A stretch of 64,000 nt of DNA. Source: an uncultured Candidatus Saccharibacteria bacterium. Lineage in GTDB: Bacteria > Patescibacteriota > Minisyncoccia > Phycocordibacterales > JABMNX01. The stretch is taken from the NCBI GenBank assembly GCA_964575755.1, contig CAZNRH010000003.1:2303-66302 (forward strand), given 5' to 3'. Position 1 is the first letter of the stretch, and each line of letters starts with the position of its first letter. Below are positions 2,684 to 64,000 of this stretch, piece by piece. The notes under the pieces were generated by a model. It did not search any database. It was not told where the DNA came from and saw only the letters and a list, made by a program, of their open reading frames with translations. The position numbers and the translations under genes are program-made.

Positions 2684-3895
2684 ATGCGGTTTATATACAA
2701 AATAAAAAATAAAGACGGAGAGATAATAGAAAGCACTGCAACTGCTCGTGATAAGTTTGAATTGTACGATCAAATTAGAAAAGAAGGCTCGGAAGTAATT
2801 GAAGTGCGCGAACATGGCAAGAACAAATTCTCAATGGATAGGTTTAATGAGATTTTCGGCACAATTAAAGAGCATGAAAAAGTCATCTTAACTCGTAATC
2901 TAGGTGCAATGATAGGTGCAGGACTCTCACTGACAAGAGCTATTACGGTACTCGAGCGTCAAACTAAAAACCAAAAATTAAAAATGGTTCTCGCTGGAAT
3001 TAACAGTGATATAAAAAAGGGTGGCAATTTCCACACTGCATTAAAAAAGTTCCCCAAAGTATTTACACAACTTTTTGTATCCATGGTTCGCGCTGGTGAA
3101 GAGAGCGGTAAGTTATCGGGAGCACTTGATCTCATAGGCGCACAGTTAGAGCGCTCATACACGCTTAAAAAGAAAATAAAAGGAGCGATGATGTACCCGA
3201 GTATTATAATGGTTGCGATGATAATAATTGCCGTGTTGATGCTTATCTTTGTGGTACCAACTTTAACTCAAACATTTGGTGAGCTTGGTGCAGATTTACC
3301 TAAAAGTACGCAAACTATAATCATGGCAAGTGATTTCTTTATACAGCACACGATACTTGCAATAACAATACCAATCGCATTTGTCACTTTTATAATGTAT
3401 GTATTAAAGACAACAAGAGGACGAAGAGCATTTCATTTTATACTGTTGCATACTCCAATAATTGGTGGATTAGTAAAAGAGATTCAGTCAGCACGTACAG
3501 CCAGGACCCTAGCGTCACTCCTCTCGTCTGGAGTTGAGATAGTTACATCTATTTCTATTACTTCAGAGGTGATGCAAAACTCGTATTATAAAGATGTGCT
3601 CTCTCAAGCGCAAAATGACGTGCAAGAAGGCTCGCCTCTGTCGAGAGCATTTACAGAGAATGAACATCTCTATCCAATACTTGTGGGCGAGATGATTTCA
3701 GTTGGAGAGGAGACAGGTAAACTGCCAGATATGCTTCTGCGTGTTGCTGAGTTTTATGAATCAGAGGTTGAGCAAAAAACGAAAGACATGTCTACTATTA
3801 TTGAGCCGTTTCTGATGATTATTATAGGGGCGTTTGTTGGATTCTTTGCTTTGTCTATGATTTCTCCAATATATTCACTTTCAGAAAGTATTTAG
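2684..3895 (+). CDS. pilC: Type IV pilus inner-membrane platform protein of the PilC/GspF family
   Basis: About 400 aa with two GspF-like repeats and three transmembrane segments. It sits immediately downstream of pilB. Confidence 0.85.
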   Translation: MRFIYKIKNKDGEIIESTATARDKFELYDQIRKEGSEVIEVREHGKNKFSMDRFNEIFGTIKEHEKVILTRNLGAMIGAGLSLTRAITVLERQTKNQKLKMVLAGINSDIKKGGNFHTALKKFPKVFTQLFVSMVRAGEESGKLSGALDLIGAQLERSYTLKKKIKGAMMYPSIIMVAMIIIAVLMLIFVVPTLTQTFGELGADLPKSTQTIIMASDFFIQHTILAITIPIAFVTFIMYVLKTTRGRRAFHFILLHTPIIGGLVKEIQSARTARTLASLLSSGVEIVTSISITSEVMQNSYYKDVLSQAQNDVQEGSPLSRAFTENEHLYPILVGEMISVGEETGKLPDMLLRVAEFYESEVEQKTKDMSTIIEPFLMIIIGAFVGFFALSMISPIYSLSESI

Positions 3896-4035
3896 AAAAT
3901 ATTATGAACGTAGTGAATTAGATTTTCTTAACCCTGTTAAATCTTTTGCAAAGCAAAAGGAAAAATATGAAAGATTTTTCCTTAACGGGGTACAAGATTT
4001 CCTAACTTATTTTTGTTCAGTAGGCAAAACTTATA

Positions 4036-5364
4036 ATGTCACACATTCAAAACAAACAAAAAGGGACGACATTACTGGATGTTGTTTTTGGCACAGCATT
4101 ACTTCTGATTGTGTTTGTTGGGCTGTATGGAGTATTTCAGCTTACTCTCGAATTAGTGCAGAGTTCTAAATCTAAAACAGGTGCACTTACTCTTGCTAGT
4201 GAACGCATGGAGTTTATTCGTAGTCTCAATTATGATGACGTCGGTACGGTTGGCGGTATCCCGCAAGGAGTGCTCACTGCGGAAGAAAACAATACATTGA
4301 ATGGAATTCCATATACTAAAAAGACGTTTGTTCAATATGTCGACGCTGTAGAAGACGGAGTTGGTGGCTCTGATTCAAATGGAATAACAACAGACTATAA
4401 ACTCGTAAAAGTTACTATAGAATGGCTATTTCGAGGGGACGCACGTTCATTTTCTCTTGTAACAAATGTTACACCTCAAGGTATAGAATCGGTTGTTGGT
4501 GGCGGCACACTGCGCATTAATGTGCTTGATTCTTATGGTTCACCGGTGCCAAGCGCTCAAGTAAATCTTATAAATAACGCACTTAATCCATCTGTTTCTG
4601 TTTCGACATTTTCAAATATAAGTGGAGTTGTGGAGTTTCCTGGAGCCCCTTCGTCAAGTAGTTATGAGATTTCCATAAGTAAATCAGGGTTAAATAGCGC
4701 ACAGACATACTCTGTTGGAGGTCTAAACGTGAACCCAAATCCAGGACACTTAACAGTCGTAGAGGCACAGACAACATCTTCAACTTTTTACATAGACACT
4801 ACTGGCTCAGCAACAGTGCGCACTTTTGAAGCAGGTACAACAACACCACTTCAAAGTATTGACCTATCAATTGCTGGCAATAAAACGATAGGAACAGATG
4901 GAATAGATGATCCTATATATAAGTATAGCTCAGACATTAATACAGGCTCTTTAGGAAGCATTTTGCTAGAGGATCTTGAGTGGGATAATTACACAATCAC
5001 CATAGATAGTGGCGCAACAGGATACGAAATAGCACAGACGTGCGAACCTCAACCATTTGCACTTGCGCCATCAGAAAATAAGGTTGTAGATATGCATCTT
5101 ACTGACAGCTCCACGCATTATATTATTGTGGATGTTACCGATAGTATCGGTAACGATCTTGGTGGAGCAAATGTACGTTTGTATAATGGAGGATATAACA
5201 CTACGTTTTCAACTGATGACTGTGGACTGACTTCATTTAGTAATTCTTCTTCATGGGGTTCGTATTCGATAGATGTATCGCTTTCTGGATATACACCACA
5301 AACAGTGAATAGTGTTGACGCAAGTAGAATATCAAACTTGAGTATCGTGCTAAACAGTATCTAA
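4036..5364 (+). CDS. Large pseudopilin-like protein with an N-terminal hydrophobic helix and Ser/Thr-rich beta-domains
   Basis: The N-terminus reads KG-TTLLD-VVFGTALLLIVFVGL, a class-III signal-like motif with Asp at +5 instead of Glu. Long Thr/Ser/Gly-rich repeats follow. Confidence 0.5.
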   Translation: MSHIQNKQKGTTLLDVVFGTALLLIVFVGLYGVFQLTLELVQSSKSKTGALTLASERMEFIRSLNYDDVGTVGGIPQGVLTAEENNTLNGIPYTKKTFVQYVDAVEDGVGGSDSNGITTDYKLVKVTIEWLFRGDARSFSLVTNVTPQGIESVVGGGTLRINVLDSYGSPVPSAQVNLINNALNPSVSVSTFSNISGVVEFPGAPSSSSYEISISKSGLNSAQTYSVGGLNVNPNPGHLTVVEAQTTSSTFYIDTTGSATVRTFEAGTTTPLQSIDLSIAGNKTIGTDGIDDPIYKYSSDINTGSLGSILLEDLEWDNYTITIDSGATGYEIAQTCEPQPFALAPSENKVVDMHLTDSSTHYIIVDVTDSIGNDLGGANVRLYNGGYNTTFSTDDCGLTSFSNSSSWGSYSIDVSLSGYTPQTVNSVDASRISNLSIVLNSI

Positions 5365-10491: not shown

Positions 10492-12213
10492 ATGAGCCCC
10501 TATACAATCAAAGAAACCTATAAAGAGAAAGACAAAAAAGAGTTGGAGATGTACCCAGAGTTACTTCAAGAGCTTTTAATAAATAAAGGAATAACAACGA
10601 AAAAAGAAGCTGATATATTTCTAAACCCAGATTATGTTAAACATCTTCACGATCCATTTCTTATAAAAGACATGGACAAGGTTGTGGATAGGATACTACA
10701 GGCAATTTCCAAAAAAGAAAAAATAGTAATCTATAGCGATTACGATTGTGATGGAATCCCAGGAGGGGTGTTACTACACGACTTCTTTAAGAAGATAGAA
10801 TACGAAAACTTTACAAATTATATTCCACACAGACATGATGAAGGGTATGGTCTTAATATCTCTGCAGTAGAAGAGTTTGGAAAAGATAACGCAAAGATTT
10901 TAATTACTGTAGATTGTGGTATCACAGACATAGTGCCAGTTGAAAAAGCGAACGAGTTTGGAATAGATGTAATAATCACAGATCACCACGTCCCTGGGGC
11001 AGACTTACCAAAAGCTTTTGCAATATTAAACTCAAAACAAAAGGGTGATACATACCCATACGACATGCTTTGCGGTACAAGTGTCGCATTTAAGTTAGTG
11101 CAGGCACTTATAGAAAAAGCTGGCAGAGTTAATAGCGGTGTAGGCTTTAATATAAAAGAAGGATGGGAAAAATGGCTCCTTGATATGGTTGGGCTCGCAA
11201 CAATAGCCGATATGGTTCCGCTCACAGGAGAGAACCGTGTTTTAGCCCACTATGGGTTACGTGTACTTCGTAAATCAAGGCGCCCAGGGCTTATGCAGTT
11301 ATGCAGAAAGATGTATATACAACAGAGGAATATAACAGAGGACGATGTTGGTTTTATGATAGTCCCGAGGATAAATGCAGCATCTCGCATGGGAATACCA
11401 ATGGACGCCTTTAACTTACTCTCCACTAAAGATGAAGTAGAGGCTGGAGCGCTTTCAACTCACTTAGATAAAATTAATAACAAGAGAAAGGGTGTGGTTG
11501 GAGCAATAACACGAGAAGTCAAAAAGCGGATAGACGAAGATAATCTAAAAGGTGTGATAGTTATGGGTAATCCAGACTGGAAGCCACCTCTACTTGGTAT
11601 TGTTGCGAACAATGTATCTGAGTTATATAAAAGACCAGTATTTTTATGGGGCAGAGATGGTGGAGAGCACCTTAAAGGGTCATGCAGGTCTGGAAACATA
11701 ATGGACGTTATGGAATTAATGTTAAAAGTAGAGAAAGGTTTGTTTTTGGAGTTTGGTGGGCATGCCTTTTCAGGAGGGTTCTCAGTTAAACACGAAAAGA
11801 TTCATGAACTAGAAGAAGGGCTTCTAAAAGCCTATAAGAAGATGGATAAGAACAAAGAGCCAGAACCAATGAGTGTAGACAAGAAGCTCTCGCTAGACGA
11901 CGTGAGCTGGGATACATACAGTGTGTTAGAGAAGCTAGCACCATTTGGACAAGGTAATAAGAAACCATTATTTCTTTTTGAGAACATAACGATAGAAGAC
12001 GTCAGAGATTTTGGTAAAGATAAAAACCATTTACAAATCGACTTTAAGAAGAAGTCAGGAGGTAAAGTATCAGCAATAGGTTTTTTCAAAACAATAAACG
12101 ACTTTGGCGATAAACTAAAAGAAAGGAATAAGATTGATCTTATAGCAACGATAGATAAATCAACCTTTAGAAACATCATAGAGCTCCGTCTACGTATAGT
12201 AGAAATACTTTAA
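10492..12213 (+). CDS. recJ: Single-stranded-DNA-specific exonuclease RecJ (DHH/DHHA1)
   Basis: DYDCDGI and DHH motifs, plus a DHHA1-like GGH region. Confidence 0.85.
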   Translation: MSPYTIKETYKEKDKKELEMYPELLQELLINKGITTKKEADIFLNPDYVKHLHDPFLIKDMDKVVDRILQAISKKEKIVIYSDYDCDGIPGGVLLHDFFKKIEYENFTNYIPHRHDEGYGLNISAVEEFGKDNAKILITVDCGITDIVPVEKANEFGIDVIITDHHVPGADLPKAFAILNSKQKGDTYPYDMLCGTSVAFKLVQALIEKAGRVNSGVGFNIKEGWEKWLLDMVGLATIADMVPLTGENRVLAHYGLRVLRKSRRPGLMQLCRKMYIQQRNITEDDVGFMIVPRINAASRMGIPMDAFNLLSTKDEVEAGALSTHLDKINNKRKGVVGAITREVKKRIDEDNLKGVIVMGNPDWKPPLLGIVANNVSELYKRPVFLWGRDGGEHLKGSCRSGNIMDVMELMLKVEKGLFLEFGGHAFSGGFSVKHEKIHELEEGLLKAYKKMDKNKEPEPMSVDKKLSLDDVSWDTYSVLEKLAPFGQGNKKPLFLFENITIEDVRDFGKDKNHLQIDFKKKSGGKVSAIGFFKTINDFGDKLKERNKIDLIATIDKSTFRNIIELRLRIVEIL

Positions 12214-12265
12214 AATAATTATCCTCCACATAAACACTTACCACAATAGCGCATCGACAACATGA

Positions 12266-12293
12266 CGAATAGTTCGGTTAACCGAACTATTCG
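12266..12293. promoter_or_regulatory. Perfect 28-bp palindrome CGAATAGTTCGGTTAACCGAACTATTCG, a putative operator, upstream of the yerC-like gene
   Basis: A second copy overlaps the stop codon of the same gene at 12713-12738. Confidence 0.55.
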
Positions 12294-12308
12294 TGGTAGT
12301 ATAAGAGC

Positions 12309-12719
12309 ATGACTTATGTGTCAAAAGGACCTCTTAAAAGTGATATAAAGAAACGCTTAGATAAACAATTTGTTAATACTATTGTATCGCTACGTACCAC
12401 TTCTGGTGGTAAGAACTTTATTTCAGAACTTTTAACAGAATCAGAACAAATAATGCTTGCAAAGCGTTTGATGATGATCTTTATGATTGCAGAAGGCGTG
12501 TCGCAATATAAAATAAAATATTTATTACAAGTCAGCTCTTCTACTGTCTCGCATATAGCGTCAAGGCTTGATTCAGGGGCATATAAACATATAAAGAAAG
12601 ATTGTAGAAGTAAAAGAAATCGTCAGACTTTTTGGGATGAGTTAGAGATTATAGTTAGGCTTGGCATGCCTTCTATGGGCAAGAGACGTTGGGATTGGCT
12701 TGATGGATTATACGAATAG
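12309..12719 (+). CDS. TrpR-like YerC/YecD-family DNA-binding protein
   Basis: The helix-turn-helix region LAKRLMMIFMIAEGVSQYKIKYLLQVSSSTVSHIASRL resembles the YerC/YecD Trp-repressor fold. Confidence 0.55.
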   Translation: MTYVSKGPLKSDIKKRLDKQFVNTIVSLRTTSGGKNFISELLTESEQIMLAKRLMMIFMIAEGVSQYKIKYLLQVSSSTVSHIASRLDSGAYKHIKKDCRSKRNRQTFWDELEIIVRLGMPSMGKRRWDWLDGLYE

Positions 12720-12738
12720 TTCGGTTAACCGAACTATT
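12713..12738. promoter_or_regulatory. Second copy of the 26/28-bp palindrome, overlapping the yerC-like stop codon and lying upstream of rnhA
   Basis: CGAATAGTTCGGTTAACCGAACTATT. Confidence 0.55.
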
Positions 12739-12765
12739 GGAGTGTGTGATATACTTTGCAATATT

Positions 12766-13179
12766 ATGCAGAAGATAATCATTTATACAGACGGTGGTGC
12801 ACGCAACAATCCTGGACCAGCTGGAGCTGGAGCCATTATTTTTGACGAAAGTGGTGAAGTGCTTAAAGAAGCATCGAGATATCTAGGGGAGAGGACGAAT
12901 AATTGGGCTGAATATGAGGCGGTTATTCTTGGTTTCGAAGAAGCAAAGAAGCTTGGGTTAAATGAAAGAGTAATCGAATTTAAAGTTGATAGTCAGTTGA
13001 TACAACAACAACTTTTAGGAAATTATAGGGTCAAAGAACCTGCTTTACGTGAACAATTTACCAAAGTAAGAAATTTTCAAGAGAAAGATTTCCCTAACAT
13101 AACCTTTACTCACATCCCTAGAGAAGAAAACAAAGATGCAGATCGCCTAGCAAACGAAGCAATGGATAGAGGGGAATAG
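12766..13179 (+). CDS. rnhA: Ribonuclease HI
   Basis: IIYTDGGARNNPGPAGAG N-terminus and the DEDD catalytic pattern. Start is placed at the ATG at 12766; the longer 12661 start would overlap the upstream gene. Confidence 0.85.
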   Translation: MQKIIIYTDGGARNNPGPAGAGAIIFDESGEVLKEASRYLGERTNNWAEYEAVILGFEEAKKLGLNERVIEFKVDSQLIQQQLLGNYRVKEPALREQFTKVRNFQEKDFPNITFTHIPREENKDADRLANEAMDRGE

Positions 13180-13202: not shown

Positions 13203-14684
13203 ATGAAGAATATCGTCTACCTTATTGTTGGTGGGTTTGTTACGGGAGTGTTTTGGCGCTCCTTTTTTGATTTCGGGGTGGAATTCTCCGTATTCGTACT
13301 TAGTTTAGGTGCTGTGGTTTTATTAATGTCGTTTATTTTAAAAAGTAGACGGAATGTGTTGCTTGTTGTTATTTTTATTATTTCCGCAGCATTTGGATTG
13401 TTACGATACGATGTTGCGAACATACATCAAGGTAGTGCGGTGGTAGATAGTTTTGTCAACAAAACTATTCTTGCAGAGGGTATTGTAATAGATGAGCCAG
13501 ATGTGCGAGAGAGAAGCACAAACTACACGATTAAGTTACAAAGTGTTTCTGGAGTAGAGGTTTCAGAGAAGGTGCGTATTGTAGCCAATTCATATCCTCA
13601 GCTTACGTATGGAGATAAAGTTGTGGTGTCAGGTGAACTGCAAAAACCAAAAGGCTTTACAACAGATACTGGGAAATATTTTGACTATGCATCTTTTCTA
13701 TCTAAAGATGATATTTTTTACCAGGTGTTATTCCCTGAATTAGAGTTTGTGTCAGGAGGTCATGGAAATGTTATAAAACAATATTTATTTAGTTTTAAAA
13801 ATGCTTTTCTTTCTAAAATTCAGAGATTGATTCCAGATCCGCAAGTAGCTTTGCTTGGAGGATTGGTAGTTGGCGCTAAACAGTCATTAGGGGAAGAACT
13901 TCAAGATAATTTCCGTACCACTGGAATTATTCATATCGTTGTGTTGTCTGGATACAATGTGACAATTGTTGCAGAAGCCATCATGAGAACTTTTGCATTT
14001 CTTCCAAGACTAGCTGGCATGTCGCTTGGTGTAGTATCGATAGTATTATTTGCTCTTATTACAGGAGCGTCGGCAACTATAGTGCGCGCGAGTATTATGG
14101 CACTGTTTGTAATTTTGGCGCGAGCTACTGGCAGAACTTATGGCATGACGCAAGCATTACTTGTTGCTGGCTTTCTAATGGTCTTACATAATCCAAAGAT
14201 TTTAGTTTATGATGCGTCGTTCCAGCTTTCTTTTCTAGCAACTATTGGTTTGATACATTTTTCTCCTCTTCTTGATAGATATGTATCGTTTGTTCCTTCA
14301 AAGTTGCAGTTTCGAGAGTTTGCAACAGCTACAATAGCAACACAGATTTTTGTACTACCTCTTTTGTTATATAAAATAGGCGAGCTGTCTTTGGTTGCGC
14401 TCCCTGTAAACTTACTGGTACTTATTACAGTGCCAATAACGATGCTTTTCGGATTTCTTGCTGGAATTATCTCATTCGTAAGTTTTTTTCTCGCAACCCC
14501 ATTTGCGTTTATTGCTTACGTATTACTTACATACCAACTCAAAGTGGTCGAGTTGTTTGCAAATGTACCTTTTGCTTCAGTTAAAATTAGCACATTCCCA
14601 CTGTGGCTTATGCTTTTATTTTACGCTGTATATGCAATCATTTTGTGGAAGATTTACAGGAAAACTATTAACTCAATAACATAA
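13203..14684 (+). CDS. comEC: ComEC/Rec2 DNA-uptake channel comprising the N-terminal OB/DUF4131 domain and the competence membrane domain, without a C-terminal MBL domain
   Basis: Multi-TM competence domain with HIVVLSGYN-like motifs. Confidence 0.75.
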   Translation: MKNIVYLIVGGFVTGVFWRSFFDFGVEFSVFVLSLGAVVLLMSFILKSRRNVLLVVIFIISAAFGLLRYDVANIHQGSAVVDSFVNKTILAEGIVIDEPDVRERSTNYTIKLQSVSGVEVSEKVRIVANSYPQLTYGDKVVVSGELQKPKGFTTDTGKYFDYASFLSKDDIFYQVLFPELEFVSGGHGNVIKQYLFSFKNAFLSKIQRLIPDPQVALLGGLVVGAKQSLGEELQDNFRTTGIIHIVVLSGYNVTIVAEAIMRTFAFLPRLAGMSLGVVSIVLFALITGASATIVRASIMALFVILARATGRTYGMTQALLVAGFLMVLHNPKILVYDASFQLSFLATIGLIHFSPLLDRYVSFVPSKLQFREFATATIATQIFVLPLLLYKIGELSLVALPVNLLVLITVPITMLFGFLAGIISFVSFFLATPFAFIAYVLLTYQLKVVELFANVPFASVKISTFPLWLMLLFYAVYAIILWKIYRKTINSIT

Positions 14685-20488: not shown

Positions 20489-22633
20489 ATGGAACGAGAA
20501 TATCCACTAGAAAGAGTCCGTAACTTCGGAATTATAGCCCACATCGATGCGGGTAAGACCACTGTGTCTGAGCGCATACTTTTCTATACAGGAGAAAGTC
20601 ATAAGATAGGTGAAGTTCACGACGGAGAGACTGTAACCGACTGGATGGAACAAGAGCGAGAGCGAGGTATCACTATTACCGCCGCCGCTATTTCCTGCTT
20701 GTGGAATAAGACAGATGAAGACCCTGATGATAATTCCAAAAAATACAGTTTTAACATTATTGATACTCCAGGACACATCGACTTCACAGTAGAGGTAAAA
20801 CGCTCAATGAGCGTGCTCGACGGAGCTATTGTTGTATTCGACGGTGTTTCAGGAGTAGAACCACAGTCAGAAACTAACTGGCGATATGCAGACGAAGCCG
20901 GAGTGCCTAGAATATGTTTTATTAACAAGCTTGACCGAACAGGAGCAAGTTTTGAGCGTTCATACGCAAGTATTCTCGATAGACTTTCACCAAATGCAGT
21001 ACGACTTCAGATTCCAATAGGCGAGGAGACAGACCATAAAGGAGTAATAGACCTGCTTGCCATGAAAGGATATACATTTGACGGAGTAATGGGAAAGGAT
21101 GTCATAAAAGGAGAGGTTCCAGAAAACCTTAAAGCAGATGCAGAGAAATATCGAGCAGAGCTTATAGAAAAAATAGTTGAACATGATGATGATCTTATGA
21201 ATCTATACCTTGAAGGTAAAGAGATACCATATGAAGATTTAAAAAGAGTTCTGAGAGTAGCAATTCTTAAGAACGCTATCTTTCCAGTATATGCTGGTTC
21301 AGCACTAAAGAACAAAGGAGTTCAGTTGGTGCTCGACGGCGTTGTTGATTACTTACCGTCACCAATGGACCTTCCGCCAGTAAAAGGAACAGACCCAAAA
21401 ACAGGAGAAGAAATATTACGAAAGCCTTCAGATGATGAACCGTTTGCAGCGCTAGCATTCAAGCTACAAACAGATCCATTTGTTGGTCAGCTTACATTCT
21501 TCCGTGTGTATTCAGGTACAGCAGAAGCTGGTTCATACATTTACAATGCATCAACGAAGAGTAAAGAACGACTCGGGCGAATTGTTCGCTTACAGGCTGA
21601 TAAACGAGAAGAAATAAAGAAAGTATTTGCAGGAGAGATTGCAGCTGCAGTTGGACTTAAAGATACAAAGACATCACACACACTTTGTGACGTAGATAAT
21701 CCAATTATTCTTGAAGAAATTACATTCCCAGAGCCAGTTATATCTCTGCGTATTGAACCTAAGACAAAAGCAGACCAAGAGAAGATGGGAATCGCACTCA
21801 ATAAACTTTCTGACGAGGATCCAACATTTAAAGTGAGTTCAGATTCTGAAACCATGGAGACAGTAATATCAGGAATGGGAGAGCTTCACCTTGAGATTCT
21901 TGTTGACCGTATGAAGAGAGAGTTTAATGTAGAGGCAGATGTAGGAACACCACAAGTGTCTTACAAAGAAACAATCCAAGGAGCGTCAGAAGCTGAAATA
22001 AAATACATAAAACAATCTGGTGGGCGTGGTCAATATGGTCATGTAAAGATTCGAATCAAACCACTTGAAGAGATTGAAGAAGGCGCAAAGATTGCAAAGA
22101 ACATAAAGAGAAGCGACCACTTCGAGTTTGTAAACTCAATTAAAGGAGGCGTTATTCCCCAGGAGTATATTCCAGCAGTTGAGAAGGGTGTTAAAGAAGC
22201 AATGGACAGAGGTATTCTTGCAGGATACAAAGCAGTTGATATTTCAGTAGAGCTTTACGATGGTTCATACCACGATGTTGACTCATCAGAAATTGCTTTC
22301 AAGATTGCAGGTTCACAAGCATTTAAAGATGCAGCAAGTAGAGCAAAGCCAGTACTTCTTGAGCCGATTATGAAAGTAGAAGTAGTAACCCCTGAGAAAT
22401 TCATGGGAGACATCAATGGAAACCTAAGTTCAAAGCGTGGACAGGTTGAAAGCATGGAAGACAGAGGAGGAAACAAGGTAATTAACGCTAAAGTACCTCT
22501 TTCAGAAATGTTTGGATACACCACAACACTACGCTCTATGACAGAAGGGCGAGCAAGTTCAACTATGGAGTTTGACCACTACGCAGTCGTACCTCAAAAT
22601 GTTGCAAAGGATATAATAGATGCAAGGAATTAA
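20489..22633 (+). CDS. fusA: Elongation factor G
   Basis: [10 protein letters not shown]-loop, DTPGHIDF, and domain IV/V motifs. Confidence 0.97.
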
Positions 22634-22719: not shown

Positions 22720-22760
22720 GCAAAAGACATTATCGACGCAAGGAACTAGAGTTTCTATTG
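22720..22760 (+). repeat. Displaced duplicate of the last 10 codons of fusA ([10 protein letters not shown]), carrying only synonymous substitutions
   Basis: Compare 22604-22643 with 22720-22760. Seven codons differ and all encode the same residues. An 85-bp insert separates the two copies. Confidence 0.8.
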
Positions 22761-22772
22761 TAAAATATACAT

Positions 22773-22806
22773 AAATAAATGCCCCAGGTACCTGGGGCAT
22801 TTATTT
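22773..22806. terminator. Perfect palindromic terminator AAATAAATGCCCCAGGTACCTGGGGCATTTATTT (family A)
   Basis: 16-bp stem between fusA and tuf. Related copies occur at 33491, 40024 and 50589. Confidence 0.75.
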
Positions 22807-23016
22807 ATGTATATTTTACGCCAGAATACTTGACTTATACATTCATTTCTTGCTATTATAGCGTCATCGCAATGGGCGCCTTTTTGTATGGGGATTCTTT
22901 TCTCTTGTATATTTAGATGTCTGTAGCTTATTATCAATAAGTATTTTTAAGAAGTAAATCACTTGTTCTCGCGCGTTTACTTTTCAAAAATACTAAATAT
23001 TTTAAATAAAATTATT

Positions 23017-24216
23017 ATGGCAGAAGAATTTGATCGTTCAAAACCACACGTAAACGTAGGAACAATTGGTCACGTTGACCACGGAAAGACTACACTTACA
23101 GCTAGTATCCTTCACGTCCTTAACTTGATGGGAGGAGAGTATGGCTCAAACCTTAAAAACGTTGACCAAATTGATAGCGCACCAGAAGAAAAAGAGCGAG
23201 GTATTACAATCGCGCTTTCTCACAATGAGTACTGGACACCAACACGTCACTATGCTCACATTGATGCTCCTGGCCACGCAGATTACATTAAAAACATGAT
23301 TACTGGTGCAGCACAGATGGACGGCGCAGTATTAGTTGTAGCAGCTTCAGATGGAGTTATGCCACAGACACAAGAGCACATCCTTCTTGCAAAGCAAGTC
23401 GGAGTACCTAAGATCATCGTATTCCTAAACAAGGTAGACCAAGTTGATGACAATGACCTTATTGATCTTGTAGAAGAAGAAGTTCGAGAACTTCTTACAA
23501 AATACGAATTCGACGGTGAAAATGCACCAATTATACGAGGTTCAGGACTTAAAGCTCTAGATGCAACATCAGTTGATGATGAATGGGCAAAGAAAATTAT
23601 TGAGCTTATCAAAGCTATGGACGAATACTTCCCAGTTCCAAAGCGAGATACTGATAAAGATTTCTTAATGCCAATTGAAGATGTCTTCTCAATTGAAGGC
23701 CGCGGCACAGTAGTTACAGGACGAATCGAGAGAGGAATAGTTAAGGTTGGAGAGGAAGTTGAAATCGTTGGTATTAAAGACACAGTGAAGACAACAGTTA
23801 CTGGAGTTGAGATGTTTAACAAACAACTTCAAGAAGGACAAGCTGGAGACAATGCAGGAATTCTTATTCGAGGAATCAAGAAAGAAGATATTCATCGAGG
23901 ACAAGTACTTGCTAAAGTAGGTTCAGTTACTCCTCATACAGAGTTTGAGGCTGAAGTATTTATCCTTAAAAAAGAAGAAGGTGGACGTCACACTCCATTC
24001 TTCACTGGATACAAGCCACAGTTCTACCTTGGAACAACAGACGTTACAGGGGATGTAACACTTGCTGAGGGAACAGAGATGGTTATGCCAGGAGACACAG
24101 TAACATTTAAAGTAAAGCTCGTAGGACCTATCGCACTTGAAGAACAGCAACACTTTGCTATTCGAGAAGGAGGTAAGACTGTTGGAGCTGGAGTTGTTAC
24201 AAAAATAGTCGCATAA
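23017..24216 (+). CDS. tuf: Elongation factor Tu
   Basis: [28 protein letters not shown]. The start is the internal ATG at 23017. Confidence 0.97.
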
Positions 24217-57540: not shown

Positions 57541-57560
57541 TCTGAGGGTTGTGCATTTTG

Positions 57561-57962
57561 TGGAGATGGGGGGTATCGAACCCCCGTTCAATGAAGGGCT
57601 TATGAATGAATCTACAAAGGTGTAGTCTATTTTTTTCTGCACAAAGTGAACAGATTTAAACTTTATATGTATAAAACAAACAAAATCATATAAAGTCGAG
57701 TTTCTTGAGTTCGGTTGTAAGTCGAAACATTCTTACTTCCTAGACCGATGTTTATGACATCAAGCAAATCGTATCGGACGTCTGATTTGTTGATGGTCGC
57801 TTAGGCCTGAGCGTAAGCGAACTGGAAGTCTTTCATCTGAAAAGGTGAAAGCATTCCGAGTGCAGATTTTTTTGCATCTACATGTTCCAGCTTTTTAAGA
57901 AGTTCTGGTCTTCTACCTTGCACATACATATGCTAACGACACTGTCGAAGCCGATCATCCCC
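57561..57962 (-). ncRNA. ssrA: tmRNA (SsrA), about 402 nt
   Basis: - The 5' end GGGGATGATCGGCTTCGACAG resembles the tmRNA 5' consensus GGGGCUGAUUCUGGAUUCGACGG.
- The 3' end GGGGGTTCGATACCCCC-CATCTCC-A forms a T-arm plus acceptor strand.
- The acceptor helix carries a G3.U70 pair.
- The 3' end is followed by a 15-bp processing hairpin.
- smpB is adjacent.
- A candidate tag ORF GCA AAA ... GCC TAA begins about 88 nt from the 5' end. Confidence 0.8.
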
Positions 57963-61879: not shown

Positions 61880-61974
61880 GTTCAATAGTTGGCGATATTT
61901 TATTTTCACTTGAGTCATGAAGAATACACAAAACTCCAATGCATTACACTGGGGTTTTGTGTTGTAAATGTGTG

Positions 61975-62048
61975 TCCGCCCTCCAGGACTTGAACCTGGA
62001 ACCTCCAAGATATAAGCTTGGTGCTCTAACCAATTGAGCTAAGAGCGG
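61975..62048 (-). tRNA. tRNA-Ile with anticodon UAU
   Basis: Cloverleaf on the minus strand:
- acceptor CCGCTCT/AGGGCGG;
- D-arm GCTC-AATTGGTTA-GAGC;
- anticodon stem CCAAG/CTTGG with loop CTTATAT;
- T-arm CCAGG-TTCAAGT-CCTGG;
- discriminator A, with CCA not encoded. Confidence 0.8.
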
Positions 62049-62930: not shown

Positions 62931-64000
62931 CTACTCGAAATGTAGCACATTTTGCTTATGTTTAACAACACTTGCTAATTCTGGGTGCTTTTTGAGTGTC
63001 GCGTCTTTTTTAATCAGGTTTTCTGCTTCATTTCGTGCAGCTTCTACCATTTTTACATTTTTAATAGCTTCCATGCCGAGGTCTGTTAAGCCCCATTGCT
63101 TCTTTCCATACAATTCTCCAGACCCACGTAGTGTTAGGTCAAACTCTGCGAGTTCGAAACCATTCTTTGCTGTTTTTATAGCTTTGAGTCTCTCGGTTGT
63201 TTGTTTGCTCTTGCTGTCAGAGAATATAAAACAATATGCTTGGTGATTGCTTCGTATAACACGACCACGGAGTTGGTGAAGTTGGGCTAGTCCAAAGCGT
63301 TCAGCACCTTCGATAACAATCATTGTTGCATTAGGTACATTTACTCCCACTTCAACTACTGAAGTAGCGACAAGTATGTCAGTTTCTCCTTTTTCAAATC
63401 TCTCCATAGCATCTCCCTTGTCTTTCGGTGTCATTTTGCTGTGCAGAATATCAATTTCAAACTCTGAAAATATTTCTTCCTTAAGACGTTTAGCTTCTGC
63501 TGTGACAGAAGTCACATTAAGAGCAAGAGCTTTCTTAGGATCTGGTTCGTTAATACGTGGACATATTACATAAGACTGCCGTCCGCCTTTAATCTCTTTT
63601 CGTATATGTTCATACGTTTTCTTTCGTTCTATTGGTAAAACAATCTCTGTGATGATAGGTTTTCGCCCGTGTGGCATCTGGTCAAGAAGCGTTAAGTCGA
63701 GGTCTCCGTATATAGTGAGTGCGAGTGTACGAGGTATTGGGGTAGCTGTCATAGAGAGAAGGTGAGGAGCAAACTCGTCTTTACGTGCAAGCTTTTGTCG
63801 TTGAAGCGTACCAAAACGATGTTGTTCGTCGATAATTATATACGCAAGATTTTGAAACTCAACAGATTTTTGAATAAGAGAGTGTGTACCGATAACTATG
63901 GAAATCTCACCACTTTTAACCCACTTTAAGAGCTGTGCTCTTGAAATATTTGTAGACTCACCTTTGTTTACTTTAGAAGGGAATTTATTACAACCACTTG
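62931..64000 (-). CDS. recG: ATP-dependent DNA helicase RecG (3' portion; the gene continues past the window end)
   Basis: DEQHRFG (DEAH-type box II), SATPIPRTL, and the helicase C motifs QLHQLRGRVIR. The frame stays open beyond 63752 to position 64000. Confidence 0.8.
   Translation of the reverse strand, partial: SGCNKFPSKVNKGESTNISRAQLLKWVKSGEISIVIGTHSLIQKSVEFQNLAYIIIDEQHRFGTLQRQKLARKDEFAPHLLSMTATPIPRTLALTIYGDLDLTLLDQMPHGRKPIITEIVLPIERKKTYEHIRKEIKGGRQSYVICPRINEPDPKKALALNVTSVTAEAKRLKEEIFSEFEIDILHSKMTPKDKGDAMERFEKGETDILVATSVVEVGVNVPNATMIVIEGAERFGLAQLHQLRGRVIRSNHQAYCFIFSDSKSKQTTERLKAIKTAKNGFELAEFDLTLRGSGELYGKKQWGLTDLGMEAIKNVKMVEAARNEAENLIKKDATLKKHPELASVVKHKQNVLHFE

Follow-up and report, generated by a model that had tools for sequence, protein, structure and literature searches.

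Why should a small regulator gene stand between two copies of a perfect palindrome? This question is raised by a 64,000-nucleotide (nt) stretch of DNA from an uncultured Candidatus Saccharibacteria bacterium (GenBank assembly GCA_964575755.1, contig CAZNRH010000003.1, positions 2,303 to 66,302), hereafter the window, along which all positions are counted. Here a gene for a 136-amino-acid (aa) protein is flanked by two palindromes, termed O1 and O2, and is followed by rnhA. A preliminary description of the region had proposed a dimeric helix-turn-helix (HTH) operator present twice, with autoregulation and control of rnhA, or alternatively a small mobile cassette. We consider it probable, if some way from certain, that the 136-aa protein is a dimeric HTH repressor of the TrpR family, that O1 and O2 are its operators, and that it represses its own gene and controls rnhA. 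The features concerned are the following.

12265-12294, no strand: candidate operator O1, a 30-base-pair (bp) perfect palindrome with the 20-bp core TAGTTCGGTTAACCGAACTA at 12270-12289.
12294-12302, forward strand: putative extended -10 element of the regulator gene (TG at 12294-12295, TAGTAT at 12297-12302), 6 nt before the ATG.
12309-12719, forward strand: TrpR-family regulator gene, 136 aa (open reading frame (ORF); Pfam PF01371; PDB profile matches; AlphaFold2 (AF2) model and Foldseek).
12712-12740, no strand: candidate operator O2, with 27 nt the same as in O1, holding the TAG stop of the regulator gene.
12747-12755, forward strand: putative extended -10 element of rnhA, TGATATACT, 10 nt before the ATG.
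12766-13179, forward strand: rnhA (RNase HI; RVT_3/RNase_H domain models), the probable regulated target.

The 28-mer CGAATAGTTCGGTTAACCGAACTATTCG was found at 12266-12293, ending 15 nt before the regulator gene as described previously; the perfect palindrome extends further than the 28 bp then reported, to 30 bp (12265-12294), and O1 as a whole ends 15 nt before the ATG at 12309. The second match to the 28-mer, at 12713-12740, carries a single mismatch (position 27, C to G). The two copies had been called identical, which holds for a direct repeat of 27 nt (12265-12291 = 12712-12738) and not for the whole 28-mer; the perfect palindrome of O2 is 24 bp (12715-12738, core 12717-12736). The TAG stop of the regulator gene (12717-12719) does lie within O2, and O2 ends 25 nt, rather than about 28 nt, before the rnhA ATG at 12766. 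Matches with up to three mismatches were obtained in 0 of 100 dinucleotide-preserving shuffles of the window. Only three perfect palindromes of at least 16 bp occur in the 64-kilobase (kb) window, and no further strong copy of the O1/O2 palindrome was found within it.

Neither copy was called by a terminator scan, and no T-run follows O1 or O2. The sequences directly after them are CGTGGTAG and GGAGTGTG, respectively, so that the G+C-rich stem followed by a U-tract typical of an intrinsic terminator is absent; both palindromes were rejected as intrinsic terminators, in agreement with the preliminary description. No Rfam family matched the region at E ≤ 1.

Promoter elements were read by eye and start sites were inferred from the sequence. 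The TG-n-TAGTAT box of the regulator gene is found 7 nt after the O1 core, and both window copies are located 7-13 nt upstream of TGnTAnnnT boxes. The layout TGnTAnnnT-N6-ATG recurs in at least seven relatives (L001, L003, L007, L010, L012, L013, and L050), and the rnhA -10 element with its spacing recurs in L008, L013, and L007. Some distant relatives have only 0-4 nt between the site and the ATG, or an overlap of the two, as in L066. The regulator mRNA looks leaderless, with a predicted start at about 12309; O1 would then cover approximately -44 to -15 of the putative regulator promoter, overlapping its -35/spacer region, and O2 approximately -47 to -24 of the putative rnhA promoter. These positions suit repression by occlusion. 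Binding of the protein to O1 would therefore result in autorepression, and O2, placed likewise, would allow the same protein to control rnhA and probably comEC, the next gene downstream; bound at the stop codon, the protein may in addition prevent transcription of its own gene from running on downstream. With a putative extended -10 box a short distance downstream of each copy, the predicted autorepression and control of rnhA are well supported. A Shine-Dalgarno sequence is absent from both regulator and rnhA (12294-12311 and 12747-12768; relatives L001-L013), and these mRNAs appear from their sequences to be leaderless or near-leaderless; other genes in relatives do have AGGAG, for example a GNAT gene in L051.

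By its Pfam score and predicted fold, the regulator is a member of the TrpR family. PF01371 (Trp_repressor) scored 35.0 bits against a cut-off of 27 over residues 19-91, and the domain was present in 13 of 13 close homologues. A profile of the 13 homologues matched the TrpR-like/HisR structures 3g1c (E = 2e-4), 3frw, and 3kor over residues 10-91. The AF2 model (mean predicted local distance difference test score 77.9) has eight helices, with the HTH at approximately residues 66-88. In a Foldseek search of PDB with this model, E. coli TrpR and TrpR-like chains took all of the top 37 places; the target-normalised template modelling scores were 0.6-0.73, and the E-values were weak (0.06-2). The label "YerC-like" given earlier is too specific: the YerC/YecD NCBIfam model (TIGR02531) scored 21.3 bits, under its cut-off of 42.2, and the score against the TrpR equivalog model was also under cut-off, and the protein is not a YerC/HisR orthologue. 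Its homologues share a strongly conserved N-terminal arm, M-x-x-V/I-S-K, and it carries two additional C-terminal helices (approximately 102-135) compared with TrpR and HisR. It is a large family, since the profile search at E ≤ 1e-10 retrieved representatives of 745 clusters formed at 50% identity, almost all of them 130-146 aa long. We found no name for this protein in public sources.

The E. coli TrpR protein is a small, all-helical, dimeric HTH regulator with an approximately 20-bp palindromic operator overlapping the promoter (trpEDCBA, aroH, and trpR). The regulator described here shares its Pfam family and fold, the approximately 20-bp palindrome, and, as predicted here, autoregulation. 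It differs in the operator consensus (TAGTnnnnTnnAnnnnACTA in E. coli vs. TGTAcTnGTnnACnAgTACA), in its 136-aa length with two added C-terminal helices, in the absence of amino-acid biosynthesis genes nearby, and in the second operator at the 3' end of the gene. The operators of both TrpR and HisR are 20-bp palindromes whose consensus is specific to the lineage, and autoregulation is frequent; about half of HisR regulators are autoregulated, with the motif cacTTTAnnnnnnTAAAgtg and regulons comprising his biosynthesis and transport genes (PMC9413887). HisR (YerC/YecD of the Firmicutes) provides the closest solved structures by sequence (those listed above) and likewise uses 20-bp palindromes, whereas the motif here is TAGT...ACTA and the neighbours are rnhA, comEC, recJ, and, in relatives, DNA replication/repair genes.

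To what does the bracket belong, the regulator gene or rnhA? We compared the flanks of 23 distinct regulator homologues (31-100% identity, several Patescibacteria classes), comprising 12 close homologues (54-100%; the window and P0002-P0013) and 11 distant ones (31-57%) from metagenome-assembled genomes (MAGs) labelled Parcubacteria/Paceibacterota, Woesebacteria, Kaiserbacteria, "Saccharibacteria", and others. In all 23, one palindrome precedes the start codon by 0-25 nt and a second follows the stop by 0-75 nt; two of the loci are cut by contig ends, where the start of the site is still visible. The bracket is kept while the downstream gene changes from rnhA to a class-I release factor, a tRNA-Trp gene, or a convergent htpX, and it therefore belongs to the regulator gene rather than to rnhA. 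Family membership, the known 20-bp operators of TrpR-family proteins, the placement relative to the -10 boxes, and the bracket in 23 homologues all favour the operator proposal of the preliminary description. One Zambryskibacteria homologue is split between two frames (L088 2652-3125; 2652-2945 and 2949-3125); the gene is frameshifted, is a pseudogene, or was misassembled.

Within the bracket, the conserved palindromic core of 20 bp keeps a constant frame, TAGT-N12-ACTA, around at least seven core variants: TTCGGTT|AACCGAA (in the window), TTCTGTT|AACAGAA, TTTTGTT|AACAAAA, TTTCATT|AATGAAA, TTCGATA|TATCGAA, TGCGATG|CATCGCA, and TGCGATA|TATCGCA. Natural operator variants other than that of the window include CGATGCATCG and CGATATATCG. 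The two flanking copies of a locus are of the same variant or at most a symmetric base pair apart, and therefore four half-sites have changed together at each switch. Locus L010, for example, has CTGTTAACAG at both flanks; compared with the window, four half-sites have changed there in a coordinated way. Such switching argues for one common reader of all four half-sites, or else for concerted evolution. We infer physical binding by the regulator, and repression rather than activation.

A single-copy gene between two copies of a dispersed repeat is formally reminiscent of a RAYT gene and its repetitive extragenic palindromic (REP) elements, and the regulator with its palindromes might be a small mobile cassette, or a selfish repeat of the REP or miniature inverted-repeat type spreading from a master copy in the manner of a REPtron. 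The uniformity of copies within a genome is typical of dispersed repeats, and in L107 (DATDXU01) an approximately 75-bp module, made up of two sites separated by 33 nt, is present as a direct repeat on either side of the regulator gene (3919-3988 and 4467-4536), giving four sites. The gene neighbourhood speaks otherwise. In the window the regulator and rnhA stand between two further genes.

10492-12213, forward strand: recJ (DHH/DHHA1/RecJ_OB; ORF and Pfam), with its stop 52 nt before O1.
13203-14684, forward strand: comEC (DUF4131 + Competence; ORF and Pfam), beginning 23 nt after rnhA and probably co-transcribed with it.

The order recJ-regulator-rnhA-comEC is kept in relatives' loci from 100% down to 48% regulator identity, and this stable synteny led us to reject the mobile cassette. 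No transposase or nuclease domain was detected above cut-off in the regulator by domain scans or the fold search. Locus L012 differs in two respects: an additional 148-aa ORF (2237-2683), with no Pfam match, is located between recJ and the regulator gene, and a gene with reverse-transcriptase and DnaG-type zinc-ribbon domains (3719-4915) takes the place of comEC downstream of rnhA.

Are there further sites, and how many? A scan with a degenerate pattern over 185,579 species-representative genomes, a set that the window's own genome lies outside, gave 98 loci, and the exact 20-mer was found in the metagenome scan at 4 loci only. By our estimate chance would yield about as many matches to the degenerate pattern, yet approximately 1/16 of these would be perfect palindromes; the observed matches are mostly perfect and cluster in Patescibacteria MAGs, with 4-6 loci in each. 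In seven MAGs the dispersed sites carry the variant found at the flanks of the genome's own regulator. A relaxed scan for other genes bracketed by a weak 5' and a strong 3' site returned none.

Some of the dispersed sites are located within genes, and these bear on the origin of the copies. Four LeuRS genes (leuS) carry a site at the same codon position, encoding VVRYIEL or (V/I)VRYIAL, where a GAA/GCA (Glu/Ala) change together with a synonymous GTT/GTG change preserves a perfect palindrome of the genome's own variant. Because these codon changes track the genome's variant, the DNA sequence itself is the target of selection there, and insertion does not account for the site among these four genes; the in-gene copies are in frame, without a change of length among the four. 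A reverse-transcriptase-like gene, identified by reading of the sequence (L102 3813-4862 and L111 306-1154), is 64% identical between two MAGs and has an in-frame palindrome (IVRYIAL), which in L102 is the host MAG's own variant.

The preliminary description held that copies at many unrelated loci would mark a REP-like element. Copies were indeed found elsewhere, in the 4-6 loci per MAG of relatives, but with low copy number (2 in the 64 kb of the window), with in-frame, variant-matched sites inside genes, and with functionally coherent neighbours. A REPtron resembles this system in its single-copy gene bracketed by a dispersed, hairpin-forming repeat with lineage-specific co-variation. It differs in its Y1 transposase, and the present sites differ in their very low copy number, in being perfect palindromes with zero spacer, and in their in-frame positions and coherent neighbours. 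The REP/REPtron assignment was rejected since we found neither a RAYT (IS200/IS605-type Y1 transposase) nor a high intergenic copy number. The cassette or selfish-repeat explanation is thus very improbable, and the dispersed sites resemble a regulon more than a REP element, albeit with features, considered below, that the regulon does not explain.

Which genes would such a regulon contain? Genes flanking or containing a site were annotated by Pfam. Sites occur in the 5' region of uvrD, ruvC, dnaX, holB, ogt, polA, and a PD-(D/E)XK nuclease gene, in addition to rnhA at the regulator locus. They occur at the 3' end of recA, recG, xth, a pif1-like helicase gene, holA, ligA, ogt, and another PD-(D/E)XK nuclease gene, and, in regulator loci, of recJ and a uracil-DNA glycosylase (UDG) gene. 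Two lineages share the xth 3' site, located in both at the convergent junction of abcF and xth, but in each it is of that lineage's variant. Sites are located inside rnhB and an HhH-GPD (nth-like) glycosylase gene. Unrelated neighbours were also found (typA, htpX, lysS, alaS, secA, metK, mscS, and others), as were unrelated in-gene sites in leuS, ychF, and a reverse transcriptase gene, and one site downstream of tmRNA.

Replication/repair genes made up 17 of 56 neighbours, compared with 0 of 30 random non-adjacent genes of the same loci (Fisher one-sided p = 2.5e-4), and p = 6e-4 was obtained with orthologues collapsed. Ten neighbours annotated after the test added recA (18/66). The palindrome is significantly associated with DNA replication/repair genes in relatives. 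There were no his genes among the approximately 66 annotated site neighbours, and no Trp or His genes adjoined any examined site. By analogy with the family, the effector signal may be an amino acid; given the neighbouring genes, it may alternatively be a DNA- or nucleotide-related cue.

The association of one palindrome with recA, uvrD, ruvC, recG, polA, ligA, and xth across genomes is shared with LexA/SOS, DdrO with its radiation/desiccation response motif, and PafBC. A LexA-type SOS regulator, which combines a winged HTH with an S24 autopeptidase, was considered and rejected: no S24 domain was found in the regulator, and its fold is TrpR-like. Many of the sites, moreover, lie outside promoters. 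We found no TrpR-family regulator tied to DNA repair or to the candidate phyla radiation (CPR) in the literature searched.

Not every site is stable. In JBBDKB (L024) sites follow recG and tmRNA, whereas the same genes in the window have none. The window carries tmRNA at 57560-57962, tRNA-Ile(tat) at 61974-62048, and recG at 62934-64000, a neighbourhood that it shares with JBBDKB (L024). Insertion of the palindrome into terminator loops already in place was considered as an origin of such sites; the 3' flanks of recG and tmRNA do not align between the two. Since the JBBDKB sites are lacking at the syntenic places of the window, we conclude that non-self sites turn over quickly.

Several observations weigh against the model. 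The first concerns specificity. We looked in the recognition helix for a residue-to-base code and found none; for specificity (DETERMINANTS), the helix S-S-S-T-V-x-[R/H/K/Q] is without a simple relation to the operator variant. N-terminal residue 3 did correspond to the central hexamer of the operator in 20 of 20 cases (His with ATATAT, 9/9; Phe with ATGCAT, 5/5; Tyr or Asn with GTTAAC, 6/6). The rule was right in two of three blind predictions, the failure being a His with ATTAAT. We treat the correlation, which is suggestive, as a lead only, because phylogeny alone would predict the same. The second concerns the match of regulator and sites: JBBTXX has CTTACGATATATCGTAAG on either side of its regulator gene but TAGTGCGATATATCGCACTA at its six dispersed sites. 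A third is that a simple -35/-10 scan called neither putative promoter of the window, although such a missed call is expected for promoters of the extended -10 type.

JBLHGD, the other exception, carries four variants, and no second regulator paralogue that would explain JBBTXX or JBLHGD was found in the loci examined. JBLHGD01 (L019, L048, L058, and L078) is a MAG labelled Candidatus Azotimanducaceae (Gammaproteobacteria), with contigs of approximately 42-44% G+C; two of its variants are 56 nt apart in L078 (at 648 and 704), and two are 63 nt apart downstream of ogt in L019. Possibly there are several paralogous regulators, or the bin is mixed or mislabelled.

The placement and shape of the sites add further difficulties. 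Approximately 15 of approximately 58 Patescibacteria sites are between convergent genes, and the non-self sites at 3' ends (recA, recG, xth, pif1, holA, and ligA) or in coding regions count against the model because a promoter-occluding repressor needs none there. Hidden tRNA or other non-coding RNA genes behind the "convergent" sites were considered and, as judged by tRNA and tmRNA genes, rejected, since only a few sites are near any of these. Sixteen sites (about a quarter) have perfect, site-specific arms of 16-27 bp per arm, and such arms were also seen in L112 and L114; in many cases A-runs and T-runs enclose them in the manner of a bidirectional terminator, but they are also present where genes diverge (L058) and 5' of the regulator gene (L073 and L085). 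Finally, two single sites show symmetric double substitutions (L040, TGGT..ACCA; L050, TCGT..ACGA). Long arms and symmetric changes together suggest that perfect palindromy, or the formation of a hairpin, is preserved for its own sake. Possible causes are a function at the level of the hairpin, such as termination or mRNA 3'-end stability; a protein roadblock that is active in either orientation; and mutational bias from template switching, a known process by which quasi-palindromes are "corrected".

Should the palindrome, then, be regarded mainly as a nucleic-acid hairpin? It would in that case be an RNA stem-loop for termination, stabilisation, or processing, or a DNA cruciform, marking a functional set of genes, and the TrpR-like protein would bind that structure or merely be encoded by one of the marked genes. 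Sites at every position of the transcript (5', in coding regions, and 3', including convergent junctions) would be accounted for, as would arms of up to 27 bp with A-run/T-run frames (for example L076, L053, L112, and L024:5514, downstream of tmRNA) and the compensated changes within the single sites of L040 and L050. As RNA, both window copies fold strongly, O1 at -22.2 and O2 at -17.5 kcal/mol (z = -5.8 and -4.1, respectively). The window copies nevertheless have no U-tract, and the upstream copy is tied to the start codon (0-25 nt) in all lineages with a -10 box downstream of it, and so is probably outside the mRNA. A hairpin needs no shared sequence among the copies of a genome, yet the sequence is shared. 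No preference for G-U over A-C pairs on the transcribed strand was seen in five asymmetric sites inspected by eye. Extended arms at divergent genes (L058) or upstream of the regulator gene (L073 and L085) make no sense for a terminator, and HTH proteins of the TrpR fold are DNA binders. We consider the hairpin explanation unlikely.

A further possibility is a site-specific DNA-binding factor with a main task other than promoter control: a bidirectional roadblock or insulator, or a parS/matS-like organiser, with the regulator gene insulating itself. The bracket is kept whatever lies downstream, including the convergent htpX; many sites are at convergent junctions and some are within genes, as with parS; a perfect palindrome would be bound independently of orientation; and the copy number of 4-6 per MAG is low. 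The bias of the neighbours towards replication/repair genes (17/56 vs. 0/30) is unexpected for architectural sites, however, and the JBBDKB sites at recG and tmRNA that are lacking in the window point to quick turnover. This explanation appears to us rather improbable, and we retain the repressor model for O1 and O2.

Beyond the window, we put forward the following only tentatively, as a possibility that may well prove wrong. The 745 clusters may represent a widespread, undescribed Patescibacteria branch of the TrpR family, governing a LexA-independent network of replication, repair, and uptake rather than amino-acid biosynthesis, through a fast-evolving perfect 20-bp palindrome located at promoters, at 3' ends, and within genes. 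In the latter two positions the bound protein or the hairpin might serve as a bidirectional roadblock or terminator, and the regulator gene would always be insulated between two sites. The proposed members are recA, recG, recJ, ruvC, uvrD, polA, ligA, xth, ogt, udg, rnhA, rnhB, dnaX, holA, holB, and comEC. To our knowledge, gene regulation in the Patescibacteria/CPR, whose genomes are reduced, mostly from uncultured organisms, and have very few transcription factors, is almost unknown. If the proposal is true, it would supply a conserved regulator with an easily recognised operator and coherent neighbours (DNA repair, replication, and uptake), and a handle on the control of genome maintenance, perhaps including nucleotide scavenging through comEC. 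The unusual placements and the rapid concerted switching of operators make this a good natural system for the study of regulator-site co-evolution. As far as the searched literature shows, the Patescibacteria-wide bracketed family, the fast concerted operator switching, and the replication/repair association are new.

Three other palindromes were noted. A second palindrome type, (T)ATACGATATATCGTAT(A) or CTTACGATATATCGTAAG, is present in several Patescibacteria MAGs, at times beside a TAGT...ACTA site (L024 at approximately 1962-1985; L088 upstream of the regulator gene; the flanks of L085 6722-7183; L105 after 3676; L020 after 3162). In JBBTXX it flanks the sole TrpR-like gene found, and a paralogous subfamily may use it as its operator.

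A weak look-alike of the operator, TAGTTTTGTCAACAAAACTA (9/10 pairs), is located at 13448-13467 of the window, 245 nt into comEC. The comEC gene of CAZVBS (L003 5190-5209) has the perfect palindrome TAGTTTTATTAATAAAACTA at the matching codon position, and both sequences encode D-S-F-(V/I)-N-K-T. The look-alike is one base off the variant that brackets homologue P0004 (L116), is missing from four other relatives, and is probably a coding coincidence.

The third, unrelated to the operators, is a 60-bp perfect palindrome, GTAAAATATACATAAATAAATGCCCCAGGTACCTGGGGCATTTATTTATGTATATTTTAC, at 22760-22819 of the window, between fusA (20489-22633) and tuf (approximately 23026-24216). With its G+C-rich tip, its A/T-rich arms, and a folding energy of -44 kcal/mol (z = -10), it has the appearance of a long bidirectional terminator or attenuator.

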